From NCBI RefSeq assembly GCF_988243305.1, contig NZ_OZ547136.1: DNA of 64,000 nt; one strand, given 5' to 3'. Below the pieces are notes generated by a model. That model saw only the letters and a program-made list of their open reading frames with translations. It searched no databases and was not told where the DNA came from. Positions 6,460-25,336 of the stretch are shown here, piece after piece. Every line of letters starts with the position of its first letter. The stretch's first letter is position 1. Made by a program: the position numbers and the translations under genes.

Positions 6460-8300
<1,841 letters not shown>

Positions 8301-9208: not shown

Positions 9209-12200
9209 TTAACCGATCGTCATTAAACTGGCGTTACCGCCAGCGGCAGCGGTATTCACACTCAGCGAACGCTCGATATACAGCCGTTCCAGCAGGATAT
9301 TGCTTTCGCCACGGGCAAAACCCTGCACCGAAACAATTGCGCCATCCCGCGCGGCAACTGCTTCACACAATGCGCGAAGCTGATCCGAATCACCGTGGAA
9401 GATCACCGCATCAAACGGTTGAGCGGTTATATTTTCCGCTTTCGCCAGTTGAATACGTTCGCTGACTGCCGATGGCAATGCCTTCACTAACTGACGATGC
9501 AGCGCGTCATCCGGCCACAGCACCTGGCTGCCCACCGCCAGCACGGCGGCGAGCTGAGTCAGCGCATCCTGCTCATCATCCGCAATACACAACACGCGCT
9601 CGCGCGGCAGCAGCGTCCAGGTGTTGCGTTCACCCGTCGGCCCTGGCAGCAATCGTTGTGTTCCTGCCTGCGCCAGCTCGCCATATTGCGTACATAACGC
9701 CTGCAATTCTGGACGGTTTGCCGCCCATTCCCGCAGTGCATTTAGCGGCTGAGTCAATGCGGCTTTCAACTGCGCATCGACCGGATACTCTGCATCCTGA
9801 CGCGCGAGCGTCACTGCCAGTGCACTTTCCGGGCGATTCGCCAGCAGACGGTAGAGATAGAGCGGACCGCCTGCTTTCGGCCCGGTGCCGGACAACCCTT
9901 CGCCGCCGAATGGCTGCACCCCGACCACTGCGCCCACCATATTACGGTTAACGTACAGGTTACCGACATGGGCCGAGCCAGTGACCTGGGCGATGGTTTC
10001 ATCAATGCGCGTATGGACGCCAAGCGTCAGACCATAACCGGAAGCGTTAATTTGCTCGATCAGCTCCGGCAGCTGGTTACGGTTATAACGCACCACATGC
10101 AGCACCGGACCAAAGACCTCTTTTTGCAATTCGGCAAAGTCATCCAGTTCAATCAGCGTCGGGGCGACAAAGGTGCCGCTTTGCCATTCACGGGCATCTT
10201 CACTGTTTTCCCGCACTGCCTGGAACACCGGACGGCCTTTACTACGCATAGTCTGAATATGACGCTCAATATTGGCTTTCGCTTCGCTATCAATCACCGG
10301 ACCGATATCGGTGGTCAGGCGACCAGGATTACCCATCCGGCATTCGGCCATTGCGCCGCGCAGCATTTTCAACGTGTGGTCGGCAATCTCATCTTGCAGG
10401 CACAGCACGCGCAGTGCCGAACAACGCTGGCCCGCACTGTCGAACGCTGAGGCCAGCACATCTATTACGACTTGTTCGGTCAGGGCGGAGGAGTCGACAA
10501 TCATCGCGTTCATGCCGCCGGTTTCCGCGATGAGCGGAATAGGGCGACCCTGAGCGTCCAGGCGGCTGGCGATATTGCGTTGCAGTAACGTAGCGACTTC
10601 GGTTGAACCGGTAAACATCACCCCGCGCACGCGATCATCACCCGTCAGTTGCGCGCCCACGGTTTCCCCCTGACCTGGCAGCAATTGCACCACGCCTGGT
10701 GGTACACCCGCTTCCAGCAAAATTGCGATCCCTTGCGCGGCAATCAGCGGCGTTTGTTCTGCCGGTTTTGCCAGCACGCTGTTACCTGCCGCCAGTGCGG
10801 CGGCGATCTGCCCGGTGAAAATAGCCAGCGGGAAGTTCCACGGACTGATACACACCACAGGCCCTAATGGACGGTGGGTTTCGTTAGCGAAATCATCCCG
10901 CACCTGTCCGGCGTAGTAGTGGAGAAAATCGACCGCTTCGCGCACTTCGGCAATGGCGTTACTGAAGGTTTTTCCGGCCTCACGCACCAGAATACCAATC
11001 AGTTGCTGCATCTGGCTTTCCATCAGCACGGCAGCGCGATGCAAAATCGCCGCGCGTTCAGCCGGAGGCGTGGCAAACCAGATTGGCGCGTTATTAACCG
11101 CACTTTCCAGCGCCAGTTCTACTTCACGCGGCGTGGCTTCACGCACATAGCCCACAATATCTTTCGGTTCCGCAGGGTTAATAACGGGCGACATCTCACC
11201 AGCCGTGACCGGTTGTTCCAGCATTGGCAAGGCCTGCCATTTTTGCAGTGCACTATTGAGCAGGGCAGAAGAGAGCGAGGCCAGACGGTGTTCGTTAGCG
11301 AGATCCAGCCCTGCCGAGTTGTCGCGCCCGTGACCGTAAAGATCGCGCGGCAGGGGAATTTTCGGATGCGGTAATCCAGTTTGCCCTTCCTGTTGCGCCA
11401 GTTTTTCTACAGCAGTGACCGGATCGGCGACCAGTTCATCCAGTGGCAAAGAGGTGTCGGCAATACGGTTAACAAACGAGGTGTTAGCACCGTTTTCCAG
11501 CAGGCGGCGCACCAGATACGCCAGCAGCGTTTCATGTGTGCCAACCGGGGCATAAATACGACACGGACGGTTAAGTTTGCCGTCGGCAACTTTCCCGGTG
11601 ACCTGCTCATACAGTGGCTCGCCCATACCATGCAGGCACTGGAACTCGTACTGACCCGGATAGTAGTTTTGACCCGCCAGTTGATAAATTGCCGCCAGCG
11701 TATGGGCGTTGTGCGTCGCGAACTGCGGGTAGATTAAATTCGGCACCGCCAGCAGCTTTTTCGCACAGGCGAGATATGAAACGTCGGTATACACCTTGCG
11801 GGTATAAACCGGATAACCTTCAAGGCCGTCCATCTGTGCACGCTTGATTTCACTATCCCAGTACGCGCCTTTCACCAGGCGAATCATCAGACGGCGACGG
11901 CTGCGGGTGGCGAGATCAATCAGGTAATCAATCACCAACGGACAGCGTTTTTGATAAGCCTGAATAACAAAACCGATGCCGTTCCAGCCTGCCAGTTCCG
12001 GCTCGAAACAGAGTTTTTCCAGCAGATCGAGGGAGATCTCCAGACGATCGGCCTCTTCGGCATCGATGTTAATACCAATATCGTACTGACGCGCCAGCAG
12101 GGTGAGTGATTTCAGACGCGGGTAAAGCTCTTCCATTACCCGATCATACTGGGCGCGGCTGTAACGCGGATGCAGCGCCGACAGCTTGATTGAAATGCCC

Positions 12201-19370: not shown

Positions 19371-20435
19371 ATGGTAACGTCCTGTACTGGACATGTTTTA
19401 GATAATCAGCGCGCCACCACTCGCGGAGATTTCTCCTCCGGTAGTCATCTCGTCACTTTGTATTTTCAACCTCATCCTTTCTTTTCATGTGTTACCGACG
19501 CCGTAAACGGTGCGCGTAGCCGTTTTTCGGCATTTTATCCAAAAGCAAACTATGGCTTACAAGGAAGCCAACCCTCTGATGTTCGTGCGCATAATCGCGC
19601 TGCCAACGGCGCGTGTGATGAATACAAACAACTCAAGGTGCTCTCCATGGGAAGACAAAAAGCAGTGATCAAAGCTCGTCGCGAGGCAAAACGTGTGCTG
19701 AGACGGGATTCGCGCAGCCATAAGCAGCGTGAAGAAGAATCGGTCACCTCGCTTGTGCAGATGAGCGGCGTAGAAGCCATTGGTATGGCCCGCGACAGTC
19801 GCGATACCTCGCCCATCCTCGCGCGAAATGAAGCGCAATTGCACTATCTGAAGGCTATTGAGAGTAAGCAGCTGATATTCGCCACGGGCGAAGCCGGGTG
19901 CGGAAAAACCTGGATCAGCGCAGCAAAAGCGGCAGAGGCCCTGATACATAAGGATGTCGACAGGATTATCGTCACCCGTCCAGTTCTGCAAGCCGATGAA
20001 GATCTTGGCTTCTTACCTGGAGATATCGCAGAAAAGTTTGCTCCCTATTTTCGTCCGGTCTACGACGTGCTGGTCCGGCGCTTAGGGGCTTCCTTTATGC
20101 AGTACTGCCTGCGACCGGAAATAGGGAAGGTGGAAATTGCGCCGTTCGCCTATATGCGTGGACGTACCTTTGAAAATGCAGTCGTCATTCTTGACGAGGC
20201 GCAGAATGTGACTGCCGCGCAAATGAAAATGTTTTTAACCCGCCTCGGGGAGAACGTGACGGTTATCGTCAACGGTGATATCACGCAATGCGATTTGCCT
20301 CGCGGCGTGCGCTCCGGATTAAGTGACGCGCTGGAACGTTTCGAAGAAGATGAAATGGTCGGGATCGTCCGATTCGGTAAAGAGGATTGCGTACGTTCGG
20401 CACTTTGCCAACGTACGCTACATGCATACAGTTAA
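19371..20435 (+). CDS. phoH: phosphate-starvation-inducible ATPase PhoH
   Basis: 354-aa ORF with Walker A GEAGCGKT and Walker B VILDEAQN; recognised as PhoH. Confidence 0.9.
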   Translation: MVTSCTGHVLDNQRATTRGDFSSGSHLVTLYFQPHPFFSCVTDAVNGARSRFSAFYPKANYGLQGSQPSDVRAHNRAANGACDEYKQLKVLSMGRQKAVIKARREAKRVLRRDSRSHKQREEESVTSLVQMSGVEAIGMARDSRDTSPILARNEAQLHYLKAIESKQLIFATGEAGCGKTWISAAKAAEALIHKDVDRIIVTRPVLQADEDLGFLPGDIAEKFAPYFRPVYDVLVRRLGASFMQYCLRPEIGKVEIAPFAYMRGRTFENAVVILDEAQNVTAAQMKMFLTRLGENVTVIVNGDITQCDLPRGVRSGLSDALERFEEDEMVGIVRFGKEDCVRSALCQRTLHAYS

Positions 20436-20451
20436 GTGTATTATCGGCGCA

Positions 20452-20477
20452 GAGCCCGGGCGAACCGGGCTTTGTTT
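20452..20477 (+). terminator. rho-independent terminator after phoH
   Basis: agcccgg-gcgaa-ccgggct followed by ttgtttt. Confidence 0.6.
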
Positions 20478-20997
20478 TATTTCATTAACAGCAAAGACTT
20501 TCACTTCAGGTTAACGTTCTGGGGGGCGACTTTGAGCGTGTTGATAAGCTGAAATGAATTCTGGTTTAGATACTTTTACCAGGCATTTTTCGTCATAGCA
20601 CGCGACCAATGTAATGCCGCCAGCGCGGAGAGTTTTTTGCCTATCTTTTTCCAGCCATTCAACCTGTACAGGAGGTCTGGTGCCAATTTTGCGTATGAGG
20701 TTTAATCAACAATGGGCCAAAATTTGACTGACTGATTAACACCGAATATATTCTCCTGATTTTATTTTTTAGGGATAATATTAAAAATATAAGGTTAATC
20801 TTAATTAAATTTTTGGCTAATATTGTGTGTTGTTATTTTTTGTGGACGGCAAGCCGCAATGGCAAAATAGGTATGGTTGTAATAATCAAAACATGATACT
20901 AACTATATATAGATCGTTGAATTGTTGGCATGTAACTCGCTACAGCGAGTAGCGTTAGTAATGAAATATAATCAACATGGATAGGTGAAGATTAATT

Positions 20998-21684
20998 ATG
21001 AGCTTTATGGTTTTTGTAACTTGTTTGACAATTGCATTTGTCGCCGGTTTTGCTGTTGCCAGAAAATTGACACTCCGAAAAGTTGCCTCATCGGTAATCA
21101 TCACTAGATCGCAACCAGTCCCTTCCTCTGCAACTTCCCCTGCTGCTAAGGCGTCGACAAGGAGCTATACACCGCAGAAAACCTATCGTGACTCTCGTTG
21201 GCAAGAACGAGATGAGTTGTTCCAGGGAATGGTTGCCGAAGGTATTTTATTGGAAGGAAAAGAGTGGTTAATTACGCGTTGTGAAAAAATTTATTTTGAT
21301 AATCTGGAGAAATGGTTTGGACATTCTTGTCATATCCATTGCCAGGTCTCTCTGGGGCGCTTGATCAACTTTCCAGAACAACCCGAGTTTAGCGAAGAAG
21401 AAAGAAAGCGTTTCTTTGCAATTTATAATGGAATGGCAATGGATTATGTTCTGGTTTCAAAGAAGAACAATAAAATAGTCTGTGTTATTGAGCTGGATGA
21501 GCCGAGTCATGAAAGGGCAGATCGCATTATTCGTGACCGTTGGTTGAATACGATTATGACTATTGCACGGGTGCCTTTTGTACGAGCTTCTGTCACTAAA
21601 TTGGATGAAATCCCTCCGGTCTGGGATACCCGTGACAAAATTCGCCCATTAGCCGCGGCGACAAAGGGTGAACCGTTGCATTAA
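20998..21684 (+). CDS. membrane-anchored DUF2726-like (PD-(D/E)xK nuclease-fold) protein
   Basis: 228-aa ORF. N-terminal hydrophobic helix MSFMVFVTCLTIAFVAGFAVA. C-terminal DYVLVSKKNNKIVCVIELDEPSHERADRIIRDRWLNTIMTIARVPFVRA fits the DUF2726 pattern as I recall it. Preceded by a very AT-rich leader. Confidence 0.6.
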   Translation: MSFMVFVTCLTIAFVAGFAVARKLTLRKVASSVIITRSQPVPSSATSPAAKASTRSYTPQKTYRDSRWQERDELFQGMVAEGILLEGKEWLITRCEKIYFDNLEKWFGHSCHIHCQVSLGRLINFPEQPEFSEEERKRFFAIYNGMAMDYVLVSKKNNKIVCVIELDEPSHERADRIIRDRWLNTIMTIARVPFVRASVTKLDEIPPVWDTRDKIRPLAAATKGEPLH

Positions 21685-21690
21685 CTAAGT

Positions 21691-21790
21691 ACCCCGGTCA
21701 GGGCTTCTCATCTCCCCCGGTGTGTGCAATATACGAAAAAAAAGCCCGTACCTTCGTACGAGCTCTTCTTTAAAGATGGCGGTGAGGGGG
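21691..21790. repeat. direct repeat copy A: terminator-containing flank ending in an antisense tRNA-Ser 3'-end-like core (putative att)
   Basis: About 100 bp, near-identical to 21872..21969. Ends in tggcggtgaggggggatt, the reverse complement of the 3' end of tRNA-Ser (serX/serW type) as I remember it. Contains a minus-strand hairpin plus T-run (gagctcgtacgaaggtacgggcTTTTTTTT). Confidence 0.75.
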
Positions 21791-21871
21791 GATTGACTCG
21801 CTTCGCTCGCCCTGCGGGCAGCCCGCTCACTGCGTTCACGGTCTGTCCAACTGGCTGTCGCCAGTTGTCGA

Positions 21872-21969
21872 ACCCCGGTCGGGGCTTCTCATCCCCCTGT
21901 GTGTGCAATATACGAAAAAAAAGCCCGTACCTTCGTACGAGCTCTTCTTTAAAGATGGCGGTGAGGGGG
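21872..21969. repeat. direct repeat copy B of the putative att/flank repeat
   Basis: The last ~70 bp are identical to copy A. Ends in tggcggtgaggggga and is followed within 160 bp by the integrase start. Confidence 0.75.
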
Positions 21970-22129
21970 ACCGCCTGAAATAAATCTGACTTAATCCAGG
22001 GGTGTTATATAATTTCATTATAAACAATGTATTACACTTTTTGTTGTCCGATATTATCTAATGTATTCTTAGTGAAGCGAGAGACTAATGGCATACTGGA
22101 TGGCATACCAGAGTGACGGGAATTAGCGT

Positions 22130-23332
22130 ATGGCAGTATTGACGGATACGAAAGCAAGACATATCAAACCTGATGACAAACCATTGCCCCATGGGGGAAT
22201 TACCGGACTGACCCTTCATCCTTCTTCAGTAAAGGGGCGGGGGAAATGGGTTTTTCGTTATGTAAGTCCGGTGACACAAAAAAGACGTAATGCTGGATTG
22301 GGAACTTACCCAGAGGTCAGTATTGCTGAAGCTGCACGTACTGCCCGGATAATGCGAGAGCAACTTGCTGCAGGTGATGATCCTCTGGAGATTAAAAAGG
22401 CTGAATCTGAGAAAGTCGCTATCCCAACATTTGCCGATGCAGCCAGGCGTGTACATGCAGAACTGTCTCCTGGATGGGAAAATCCAAAGCATGTAAGGCA
22501 GTGGTTATCGACGCTTGAGAATTACGCGTTTCCTCAACTGGGAGCAAAAACGCTGGATTCGATTACGGCTGCGGACGTGGCAGAAACACTGCGTCCAGTC
22601 TGGTTAACCTTATCAGAAACGGCAAGCCGGGTTAAACAGCGCATTCATGTTGTTATGCAGTGGGGATGGGCGCACGGTTTTTGTGTAGCAAATCCTGTTG
22701 ATGTGGTTGACCATTTGCTTCCTCAGCAGACAAGAGGACGTGATGAACACCAACCCGCAATGCCCTGGAGGCAGTTACCGCTTTTTGTGGCGACCAGTGT
22801 GTATACCGATGAACCTTATAATGTTACCCGCGCACTGTTATTAATGGTGATACTTACAGCAACTCGCTCGGGCGAAGCCAGGGGAATGCGCTGGGCTGAA
22901 ATTGATTTTCATAAGCGGGTATGGACTATACCTGCAGAAAGAATGAAAGCTAGGCTACAGCATCGTGTTCCTTTATCCCGGCAGGCTATTTACATTCTGG
23001 AAAATATACGTGGCCTGCATGATGAACTGGTGTTCCCTTCACCCAGAAAGCAGCAGATCCTTTCCGATATGGTGTTGACAAGTTTTCTGCGTAAAAAGAA
23101 AGCCGTCAGTGACATTCCGGGGCGAGTTGCCACGGCACATGGTTTTCGCTCAACATTCAGGGACTGGTGTAGCGAACAGGGGTATTCGCGGGATCTGGCG
23201 GAAAGGGCGCTCGCTCATACGCTGAAAAATAAGGTTGAGGCGGCATATCATCGTACTGATCTACTGGAGCAGCGTGTACCGATGATGCAGGCATGGGCGG
23301 ATTATGTGATGTCTCAAATTGTGAATAAATAA
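22130..23332 (+). CDS. int: P4/CP4-57-type tyrosine integrase
   Basis: 400-aa ORF. N-terminal DUF4102-like LTDTKARHIKPDDKPLPHGGITGLTLHP...GKWVFRY. Catalytic R (TATRSGEARGMRW), HxxR (HGFRSTFRDW) and Y (VEAAYHRTD). Confidence 0.9.
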   Translation: MAVLTDTKARHIKPDDKPLPHGGITGLTLHPSSVKGRGKWVFRYVSPVTQKRRNAGLGTYPEVSIAEAARTARIMREQLAAGDDPLEIKKAESEKVAIPTFADAARRVHAELSPGWENPKHVRQWLSTLENYAFPQLGAKTLDSITAADVAETLRPVWLTLSETASRVKQRIHVVMQWGWAHGFCVANPVDVVDHLLPQQTRGRDEHQPAMPWRQLPLFVATSVYTDEPYNVTRALLLMVILTATRSGEARGMRWAEIDFHKRVWTIPAERMKARLQHRVPLSRQAIYILENIRGLHDELVFPSPRKQQILSDMVLTSFLRKKKAVSDIPGRVATAHGFRSTFRDWCSEQGYSRDLAERALAHTLKNKVEAAYHRTDLLEQRVPMMQAWADYVMSQIVNK

Positions 23333-23518
23333 TAGTGAAAATGTATATTGTACGATCATGATTTGATATGTGATCGTAGCAGTAGTAATTAAGAAACCGC
23401 TTTTATGTCAAATGTATTGAGCTGATAATTATCAGATCGTCAGGAAAGCGTATTTTGATTAACAGGGGATTACTTAACAATCCCCTTTTTATAAAAAATA
23501 ATTTGCCTGTTTAACTCT

Positions 23519-25336
23519 TCACTCCTGCTGAGACTGAATTATTCCTAGTGCGTCATAAATCAGTCTTCTGCGTAGTTTATTGTTTTTATCTGCACCATAT
23601 AACATAAATATATTTTCAACTTTTTCTTCAGGTGTTCTGAGATAATGGATAAGAAAGGTTATCATTCCAACACAATGGAATAAAGTGAATCCATCAAACA
23701 GGCTTATCAGGTTTCCTTTTTTTTCCCGTGTTGTAAGTATTTTTTCGCGGGTAAGAATATTTGCCAGTTCATGGGGGGCTGATATGTTTCTGCTGTCTAT
23801 AATGTCATTTATTTTACCAAGGGCTATATCAACTTCCTGTAATAGGTTATTTATCATAGCTGAGTGAATGTTATTGGTTTCATGTTCCTGACAGTTTATG
23901 AACTTATAAATCATTGAGTTATACAGAAATATTACTCTTCCTAATAAATATGTGTTTGTGTCATTTTGAAGACAGGACTCTGGGTATTCGTGATCCAGTG
24001 AAATAAGGTTAATGGACTCGCCCTGATAAGTCATAAAATAATTGATGTCATTTAATAATGCTCGGATATTTACATGATTTTTACTGAATTTTATTTTAAA
24101 TGCTATCTTTAGTATAGCAAACGCGGCAATGATAAATCCAAAAGGTAATTTCTCATAGTTCAGTTTATTGATGGTGCGATGAACACTTTCAGTCTTTCCT
24201 GAAGTAAGTTGTCTCAAACAGTTAACAAATTCTGTATAGCCATTTAAGACATAATGGCATGAAGAATCTTTTAAAGAGTTTTCTATGTTTTGTAATGTGA
24301 CGCCGTTGTTCAATGTATAAATGTAACCGCCAAAGACAATGTTTTCAATCTCAACGACACAATTTATTGTTTTTTGTTCAGGATAAAGATAAATATCAGA
24401 AATACTATAGTCTCGTATTGCGTCAATGGCATCCCACGATAATGCACTGTCAATTTTCAGTGTATAAAATGGTGAGTTCTCATTAGGAAAGTAATATATG
24501 TATTTGTTCAGTATATTCATTACATCTATTGGGTTGGTTAAATATAATAACTGGCATTCATATTCTGAAACTTCTCTTTCGCTTATCAGCATTTTATATA
24601 AAGTTGCCAGGGTGCTTGTTAATGAAGTTCGTCTTTCGAAAGCCAGTAATATAGTGAGATAATAACATGCAACCTGAACTTTATCTAAGTCAGAAATTAT
24701 TTTTTCCTTGTCTTCATTACTTAAATAAAGCAGATGTTTACAGGTTTCTTTGCATGTGTTGATAGTTGCGATAAGTTTTGTTTTTCCTGGTGTACTGTTT
24801 TTGCGAATATTACGAATGAATTCATATACGCCATCAAAGATATCTTTGAAATGCGCATTCGCTGGCGTGTATCCGGATAAACATAACTTAACGTAATTTC
24901 GCAGATATGTCCTTGCAGCATGATATATATCATCCTCATTATCCGGTATCTGAGTGAGAAAAGAATGAATATGATAGTAAAATGCCATCTCATTATCCGG
25001 GCGATATGTGTTCCTGATGTCGAGTGCGAGAATCATTGGTACAATGTCATTAAAATATTTTTGTTTTATTATTTGATGTGTTTTGTCTGTAAAAACAGAA
25101 TAGTGCATTAGCTTAACATAGAGATCTTCATATCTCCTAAATATAACTTTTCGTTGTTCTTTACTCAATACTTGTTCTTTATCAATAATGTTTATTAATT
25201 CATCAAACATGTCGCCCAGTGAATGTTGATGTGAGGAAAAATTTTTAATATTTCGGATGTCACGGCTATTCTGGTTTTTAGCCAGAACACCAAAACATGA
25301 AAAGACATCATACATTATAGTGATAAAATTATACAT
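23519..25336 (-). CDS. hypothetical 605-aa protein, low-GC orphan
   Basis: Long uninterrupted ORF in a strikingly AT-rich segment. I recognise no domain. Has one or two hydrophobic segments (LPFGFIIAAFAILKIAF, FTLFHCVGMITFLIHYL). Confidence 0.6.
   Translation of the reverse strand: MYNFITIMYDVFSCFGVLAKNQNSRDIRNIKNFSSHQHSLGDMFDELINIIDKEQVLSKEQRKVIFRRYEDLYVKLMHYSVFTDKTHQIIKQKYFNDIVPMILALDIRNTYRPDNEMAFYYHIHSFLTQIPDNEDDIYHAARTYLRNYVKLCLSGYTPANAHFKDIFDGVYEFIRNIRKNSTPGKTKLIATINTCKETCKHLLYLSNEDKEKIISDLDKVQVACYYLTILLAFERRTSLTSTLATLYKMLISEREVSEYECQLLYLTNPIDVMNILNKYIYYFPNENSPFYTLKIDSALSWDAIDAIRDYSISDIYLYPEQKTINCVVEIENIVFGGYIYTLNNGVTLQNIENSLKDSSCHYVLNGYTEFVNCLRQLTSGKTESVHRTINKLNYEKLPFGFIIAAFAILKIAFKIKFSKNHVNIRALLNDINYFMTYQGESINLISLDHEYPESCLQNDTNTYLLGRVIFLYNSMIYKFINCQEHETNNIHSAMINNLLQEVDIALGKINDIIDSRNISAPHELANILTREKILTTREKKGNLISLFDGFTLFHCVGMITFLIHYLRTPEEKVENIFMLYGADKNNKLRRRLIYDALGIIQSQQE

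Follow-up and report, generated by a model that had tools for sequence, protein, structure and literature searches.

Tandem repeats next to a P4-family integrase: an RtT-type array of the native serX 3' flank beside the att junction of a serX island

The tandem ~100-bp repeats at 21691-21969 of the window, by which we mean the whole 64-kb stretch of DNA analysed, are best explained as two known things lying side by side, namely an RtT-type array of the native serX 3' flank and the att junction of an island of the SpLE1/OI-48/SRL-PAI/PAI-serX family. We put the probability of this reading at roughly 0.93. The homology of the repeats, the empty site, both island junctions, and the family identity of the integrase were observed in the present comparison. 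Both components have already been described, and the island family is very common.

In this reading, the E. coli DNA that natively lies 3' of serX, a tRNA-Ser(GGA) gene, is built of tandem ~180-bp units, each consisting, in tRNA sense, of an intrinsic terminator, an RtT-type structured segment, and a ~19-nt copy of the tRNA 3' end. Of this array, the window retains the terminator that once lay directly 3' of serX, one full unit, another terminator, and part of one more unit, which is truncated. The island would have entered through recombination, catalysed by its P4-family integrase, between attP and the 14 bp that close serX. The original 14 bp (21956-21969) would have been displaced and have stayed on the native flank beside int, and an intact serX would have been restored beyond the window, at the opposite island end, where the DNA downstream of it, a new terminator included, comes from the island. 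The second "core" at 21777-21790 is a pseudo-3' end of the kind present in every RtT unit.

Layout of the tandem repeat and the RtT-type character of its unit

The preliminary description had reported two near-identical direct repeats, and the alignments agreed with it. In a global alignment, 21691-21790 and 21872-21969 were identical in 96 of 100 columns, with one 2-nt indel and two mismatches that clustered in the 21691-21721 part, and the final 71 nt of the copies were identical. A repeat search of the window returned 21713-21790 and 21892-21969 as a direct repeat of 78 nt (99%). Both copies close with TGGCGGTGAGGGGG (21777-21790 and 21956-21969), which occurs twice in the window against a chance expectation of 0.01. 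That these cores are the reverse complement of the tRNA-Ser 3' end had been proposed and proved correct: the right core is exactly the last 14 nt of K-12 serX, and the left core matches the K-12 serX end over 15 nt exactly, or over 18 of 19 nt with one G absent from the G-run. ARAGORN found no tRNA in the 64-kb window, in agreement with the reported lack of an intact tRNA-Ser.

The minus-strand hairpin followed by T8 that had been noted in each copy was likewise recovered. The segments 21726-21776(-) and 21905-21955(-) are identical, each consisting of a hairpin and U8, and each folds at -20.5 kcal/mol (z = -4.87), with 0 of 200 shuffles as stable. A simple terminator scan returned weak plus-strand hairpins only and missed these strong minus-strand terminators, which became apparent on folding, likely because the stem runs on into A/U tracts. 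The three hairpins proposed for the 81-bp spacer (21791-21871) are all contained in the minimum-free-energy fold of 21777-21911(-), which has an energy of -56 kcal/mol (z = -3.0). Weak Rfam matches of the terminator hairpins to MicC and to the Thr and Leu leaders lay well under threshold and were rejected as terminator look-alikes. The features of the region are listed in Table 1; in addition, the truncated unit ends a few bases from the stop codon of the DUF2726 gene, and the distal terminator belongs to the same sequence class as the terminator directly 3' of serX in K-12.

Table 1. Features of the serX-flank array and the adjoining island end (window coordinates)
Feature	Position	Strand	Basis
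DUF2726-domain gene of the chromosomal flank, convergent with the serX-flank array	20998..21684	+	ORF list; Pfam PF10881, E = 9.6e-19
Distal end of the array: 5' remnant of one more RtT-type unit, truncated and diverged	21691..21721	-	tRNA-sense reading, alignment with the K-12 units
Distal copy of the unit's intrinsic terminator	21736..21771	-	Fold, -20.5 kcal/mol, z = -4.87
Complete RtT-type unit: 81-bp spacer and pseudo tRNA-Ser 3' end (21777-21794, 18/19 nt)	21777..21911	-	Rfam RF00391, fold
serX's own intrinsic terminator, proximal copy, with the island now between it and serX	21915..21950	-	Fold, serX-version sequence
Displaced last 14 nt of serX: att core, island direct repeat and boundary	21956..21969	-	Exact serX-end match, published repeat
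Integrase-side arm of the former attP	21970..22129	+	Sequence; functional roles putative
P4-family tyrosine integrase of serX/serW islands (SpLE1, OI-48, SRL-PAI, PAI-serX)	22130..23332	+	Pfam, nucleotide identity

The complete unit was identified through the Rfam scan, in which RF00391 (RtT RNA) covered 21777-21911(-) over the full model (1-130) with 43.5 bits (E = 2.5e-6). This is 1.5 bits under the gathering score of 45 because of small deletions in the G/C runs of the window unit; the K-12 serX units scored 46.3, 46.3, and 36.1 bits. Both the terminal helix and the internal hairpin of the RtT family are present in the fold of the window unit. At the same place in other strains, one or two "RtT sRNA" features are annotated by PGAP. 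The four closest genomes lack this annotation, and slightly more distant ones have it, a pattern that fits a unit scoring just below the cut-off and indicates that RtT annotation is threshold-dependent. PGAP thus overlooks copies just below the Rfam threshold, such as the window unit. In addition, its note "processed from tyrT transcript" is put on serX units too, which is wrong for the serX locus.

The 178-bp repeats of the E. coli tyrT-tyrV operon, rttR, are attributed to Bosl and Kersten (1991, as cited in PMC3318445). The tyrT-tyrV RtT repeats (RF00391; rttR) resemble the serX array in several respects. Both are composed of tandem ~180-bp units located directly downstream of a tRNA gene (the period is 179 in the window, 181 at K-12 serX, and 178 at K-12 tyrT), and in both a ~19-nt copy of the cognate tRNA 3' end closes each unit. 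They also share the 5' core GATGAGAAGC..CGAC....GTTCGA, the 3' part CCCG.AGGGCGA...GAGT.AATCC, and the terminal helix. The serX units differ in being attached to tRNA-Ser(GGA) rather than tRNA-Tyr, with helix bases and a 3' tail that follow tRNA-Ser, in the middle of the unit, in the intrinsic terminator that each of them carries, and in lacking a documented RNA product. No paper linking RtT with serX was found in the literature searched. We treat the serX array as already described on the basis of Rfam, the PGAP annotation, and older repeat surveys.

The att junction and the island family

The integrase had been placed about 160 bp to the right of the repeats; its ORF (22130-23332) starts 161 bp past 21969 on the plus strand, and its Pfam architecture is Arm-DNA-bind_3, Phage_int_M, and Phage_integrase. 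A comparison with serX islands of other strains, which the preliminary description had suggested, assigned the junction together with int (21940-23340, 1401 nt) to a known family: its nucleotide identity was 99.7% with SpLE1 of Sakai, and UTI89 and Nissle gave 99.5% and 99.4%, respectively. The same segment was found in 1267 of 5426 genomes. The annotated start of the SpLE1 feature in Sakai is the base equivalent to window position 21956. The 14-bp direct repeat TGGCGGTGAGGGGG has been published for OI-43 and OI-48 of O157 strain EDL933 and for SpLE1, and is identical in SRL-PAI of Shigella flexneri; the P4-family int of OI-43/OI-48 sits at the cryptic ser'X end, and islands of this family can occupy serX as well as serW (Bielaszewska et al., 2011, PMC3064760). 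Site-specific excision has been shown experimentally for OI-43/48 and SRL-PAI (PMC3064760; review PMC7545054). The serX islands of CFT073, UTI89, and others, as well as the 14-bp repeats of SRL-PAI, are listed in the same review, and the start it gives for PAI-UTI89-serX, 1080842, fits the UTI89 match at 1080947 (PMC7545054).

The other end of the island was examined in E. coli SW4848, with which the window is colinear over rut-putA-putP-efeUOB-phoH-DUF2726-[repeats]-int-island and 99.3% identical at the junction. In SW4848, an intact tRNA-Ser adjoins ghrA and is separated from int by ~82 kb; its CCA abuts island DNA, and the identical 14 bp, CCCCCTCACCGCCA in tRNA sense, bounds both island ends. 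For the genome of the window, the serX-proximal island end, which lies outside the window, is taken from SW4848 on the strength of this colinearity; it would comprise an intact serX followed by GATTACAAGCGC... and would be expected to adjoin ghrA. Right after the serX CCA, the SW4848 end (L005 31005-31052) carries an island-borne intrinsic terminator (-17.5 kcal/mol, z = -5.9). Since the island brings its own terminator, the regenerated serX keeps one although the native terminator is ~82 kb off.

The right-hand copy, with its core at 21956-21969, is thus the true att junction, and the island boundary in the window can be placed exactly at 21956/21969. The proposal that both repeats are att junctions held for this right core, which is the published 14-bp repeat and bounds both island ends in SW4848, and failed for the left core, which is part of a native RtT unit. 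The orientation of the core relative to int had been called unusual and taken to suggest a rearranged or tandem-island history. However, int beside the cryptic ser'X end with the intact serX at the far end is the normal layout of the SpLE1/OI-48 family, as seen in the published islands (PMC3064760) and in the Sakai annotation, and this integrase is present in 1267 of 5426 genomes.

In phage P4 and the leuX-type islands, the canonical order is tRNA, then int. These elements have the same integrase architecture as the window island and likewise use a tRNA 3' end as attB; in contrast to them, the window int is distal to the intact tRNA and antisense to the core, which is a trait of the serX/serW family. 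With SpLE1, OI-48, OI-43, and SRL-PAI, the window island shares the 14-bp repeat, the P4-family int at ser'X, and, as predicted from SW4848, probably the intact serX at the far end. It differs from them in its cargo, which is colinear with the SW4848 island and includes a DUF3987 protein, a large AAA-domain protein, enterotoxin-like and malX/malY-like genes, and IS elements. Its chromosomal flank is a DUF2726 gene, annotated likewise in related genomes, versus ycdU for OI-48, OI-43, SpLE1, and SRL-PAI, and its junction carries one RtT unit versus none in Sakai SpLE1. PAI-CFT073-serX, PAI-UTI89-serX, and the serX island of Nissle 1917 have the same insertion site and near-identical integrases (99.4-99.5%).

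On the island side of the core, the sequence GGCGGT-CCCCCTC-ACCGCC consists of 6-bp inverted repeats flanking a 7-bp segment. Inverted repeats around a short central segment are the usual shape of a tyrosine-recombinase core. A promoter-like site (10 of 12 matches) is located at 21986-22013 before int. Two adjacent copies of TGGCATAC are present at 22089-22108 and nowhere else in the window, and the other island arm of SW4848 contains two further copies in the same orientation; these copies are candidate arm-type sites.

Several further observations were made on the island and its flank. Two large island ORFs, 23519-25336(-) of 605 aa and 39435-41012(-) of 525 aa, had no Pfam match; the former is conserved beside int in SW4848 as well as in Sakai, where it is annotated as ECs_1300, "membrane protein". 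IS3-family transposase ORFs (rve and HTH_21) occupy 38165-39473, 47018-48343, and 58510-59400 of the window. Pfam scored the ORFs 38542-39432 and 58510-59400 identically, and these two appear to be copies of a single IS; 38165-39473 and 47018-48343 are insertions relative to SW4848. On the chromosomal side, the Rfam model Ysr251 (Yersinia sRNA 251) matched 20237-20430(-) with 192.8 bits (E = 1.2e-53), antisense to and wholly inside phoH (19371-20435, plus strand); this match probably reflects the conservation of phoH and not an independent RNA gene.

The island position probably affects transcription of the displaced flank. The minus-strand terminators would now serve only to shield the DUF2726/phoH side against leftward transcripts. 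The window's own RtT unit is probably little transcribed because it has lost the tRNA promoter, the island lying between the unit and the serX promoter and the unit itself lying behind a terminator.

The serX flank without the island and the origin of the second core

In K-12, which has no island at serX, the chromosomal neighbourhood seen in the window closes with serX-ghrA, and serX is followed by three units at a perfect 181-bp period and a partial one. In tRNA sense, the terminator of each unit is followed by an RtT body and then by 19 nt that copy the serX 3' end. The tyrT-tyrV locus of K-12 has the same design at its 178-bp period, with tRNA-Tyr ends. Between phoH and the serX-flank array, K-12 carries pgaDCBA-dgcT-IS3-ymdE-ycdU (~11 kb; L003 3058-13830), versus the DUF2726 gene alone at 20436-21690 of the window, and the point at which the array is truncated differs between the two lineages.

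An in-silico empty site, in which window positions 21300-21969 were joined to the rest of K-12 serX and ghrA, was searched for in complete E. coli genomes. A contiguous DUF2726-array-serX-ghrA arrangement was carried by 512 genomes, at one place. The best matches covered the query completely in a single piece at 98.6% identity and were annotated as DUF2726, tRNA-Ser, and ghrA. A one-unit tandem array therefore exists without any island.

The number of full RtT units at the serX site is zero in Sakai, one in the window and in SW4848, two in 2024CK-00188 and many others, and three in K-12. Among the strains inspected it thus ranges from 0 to 3, and it varies at occupied (0-2) and empty (1-3) sites alike. 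Unequal crossing-over or slippage would account for the growth and shrinkage of the array, unequal exchange being the simplest cause.

The variation at occupied sites could also be read as the work of the integrase, if the pseudo-3' ends of the RtT units were secondary attB sites and recombination among the cores set the copy number or permitted tandem islands. The full-length serX units of K-12 and SW4848 do share 19 nt of the tRNA end and the whole downstream flank with the true attB, and the putative core site (a 6-bp half-site, the 7-bp overlap CCCCCTC, and ACCGCC) differs at its outermost base only. However, a synthetic junction of the RtT body, the core, and the tRNA-proximal island end was present in 0 of 5426 genomes: every match in this search started with the 19 shared nt, at a place annotated as tRNA-Ser. 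Moreover, empty sites show the same copy-number variation, so homologous unequal exchange suffices, and the pseudo-site of the window has a one-base deletion in the C-run. We consider a role of the pseudo-3' ends as integration sites highly improbable.

In K-12, serW is followed by a paralogous terminator of ~40 nt, after which the flank diverges; RtT units are absent there although the serW tRNA is identical to that of serX. OI-43 inserts at serW, which shows that RtT units are not required for integration. As a source of the window flank, serW was rejected, since the terminator and the neighbouring genes match serX and not serW. The serW 3' flank of K-12 runs into CRISPR-DR4-type repeats (50.1 bits; L151 1254-1341, serW-clpA interval), which form the orphan CRISPR-like array already known between clpA and infA.

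The preliminary description had regarded both ~100-bp copies as att junctions multiplied by successive integration and deletion of islands, which would make the spacer a relic of an earlier island. An exact 14-bp att core is indeed present in both copies, and islands of this family excise and can sit at serX and serW (PMC3064760). The presence of the one-unit array at the empty sites of 512 genomes nevertheless removes such an origin, and the island-free K-12 has three copies. In addition, the spacer shows homology to the RtT repeat of tyrT and to neither island arm, and other taxa have the same arrays after intact genes for tRNA-Ser and tRNA-Tyr. This scenario is accordingly very unlikely, and the upstream "second att site" should not be taken as a sign of tandem or successive integrations.

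Ser-type units in other taxa and their meaning

The core pattern TGAGAASCNNCGACNNNNGTTCGA was searched for in metagenome and viral contigs and was found at >120 metagenomic loci and 13 viral-contig loci. At every locus with a tRNA on the contig, the units followed tRNA-Tyr(GTA) or tRNA-Ser (mostly GGA). Most tandem units on these contigs end in a copy of the tRNA 3' end, typically of 19 nt (mostly 18-20, range 10-20), and last or single units often retain the T-stem strand alone. In a set of 80 distinct metagenome units, changes in the terminal helix go along with changes in the internal hairpin and with the tRNA type (Tyr or Ser). Positions 3-4 of the terminal helix were paired in 79 of 79 units, as A-T in the 51 of Tyr type and as G-C in the 28 of Ser type, and the pairs of the internal hairpin are U-A or C-G. 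The pair counts are anchor-based, since the terminal-helix consensus that RNAalifold derived from a MAFFT alignment combining Tyr and Ser units was poor and out of register. The two-state helix pattern may have arisen from few evolutionary events or from tRNA copying.

Occurrence at many unrelated loci had been named as a finding that would turn the repeats into a generic dispersed element, and the family does extend to tyrT and to tRNA-Ser and tRNA-Tyr genes of other taxa. Although it thus occupies more than one locus (serX and tyrT in K-12), a REP- or ERIC-like intergenic repeat resembling a tRNA end by chance can hardly be entertained, given that units lie downstream of a tRNA-Tyr or tRNA-Ser gene wherever the contig has a tRNA, that most tandem units close with an 18-20-nt copy of the upstream tRNA's 3' end, that the helices switch from G-C to A-T exactly with the tRNA type, and that only 0.01 matches to the 14-mer were expected by chance.

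The combination of a native RtT-type array and an att junction, as proposed for the window, was also encountered in another taxon. At the end of two ~45-kb prophage contigs from IMG/VR, L139 (~7330-8115) and L143 (~10100-10711), a displaced tRNA-Ser end of 26 nt precedes 3-4 Ser-type units with a period of ~166, and the same array lies 3' of an intact tRNA-Ser(GGA) on contig L079 (1507-2095). This is an independent parallel of the window anatomy with a different integration system. Contig L139 carries a 392-aa ORF just within the prophage end.

Finally, the unit resembles a T-arm interrupted by ~70 inserted nt: GGGG-TTCGA-[insert]-AAT-CCCCC followed by the acceptor 3' strand. We tentatively raise the idea, which at present seems doubtful, that the Ser-type RtT units form a distinct and so far unnamed subfamily of tRNA-linked, T-arm-like repeats whose evolution is coupled to that of the class II tRNA next to them (Tyr or Ser) and which carry near-perfect copies of an integrase core that are unused in 5426 genomes. 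If this were true, recognition of attB by this integrase would need tRNA sequence beyond the last 19 nt, for example the T-loop or the 5' strand of the T-stem, and the arrays could act as processing decoys, as insulators, or as spare 3' ends for the repair of a tRNA gene damaged by mobile elements.
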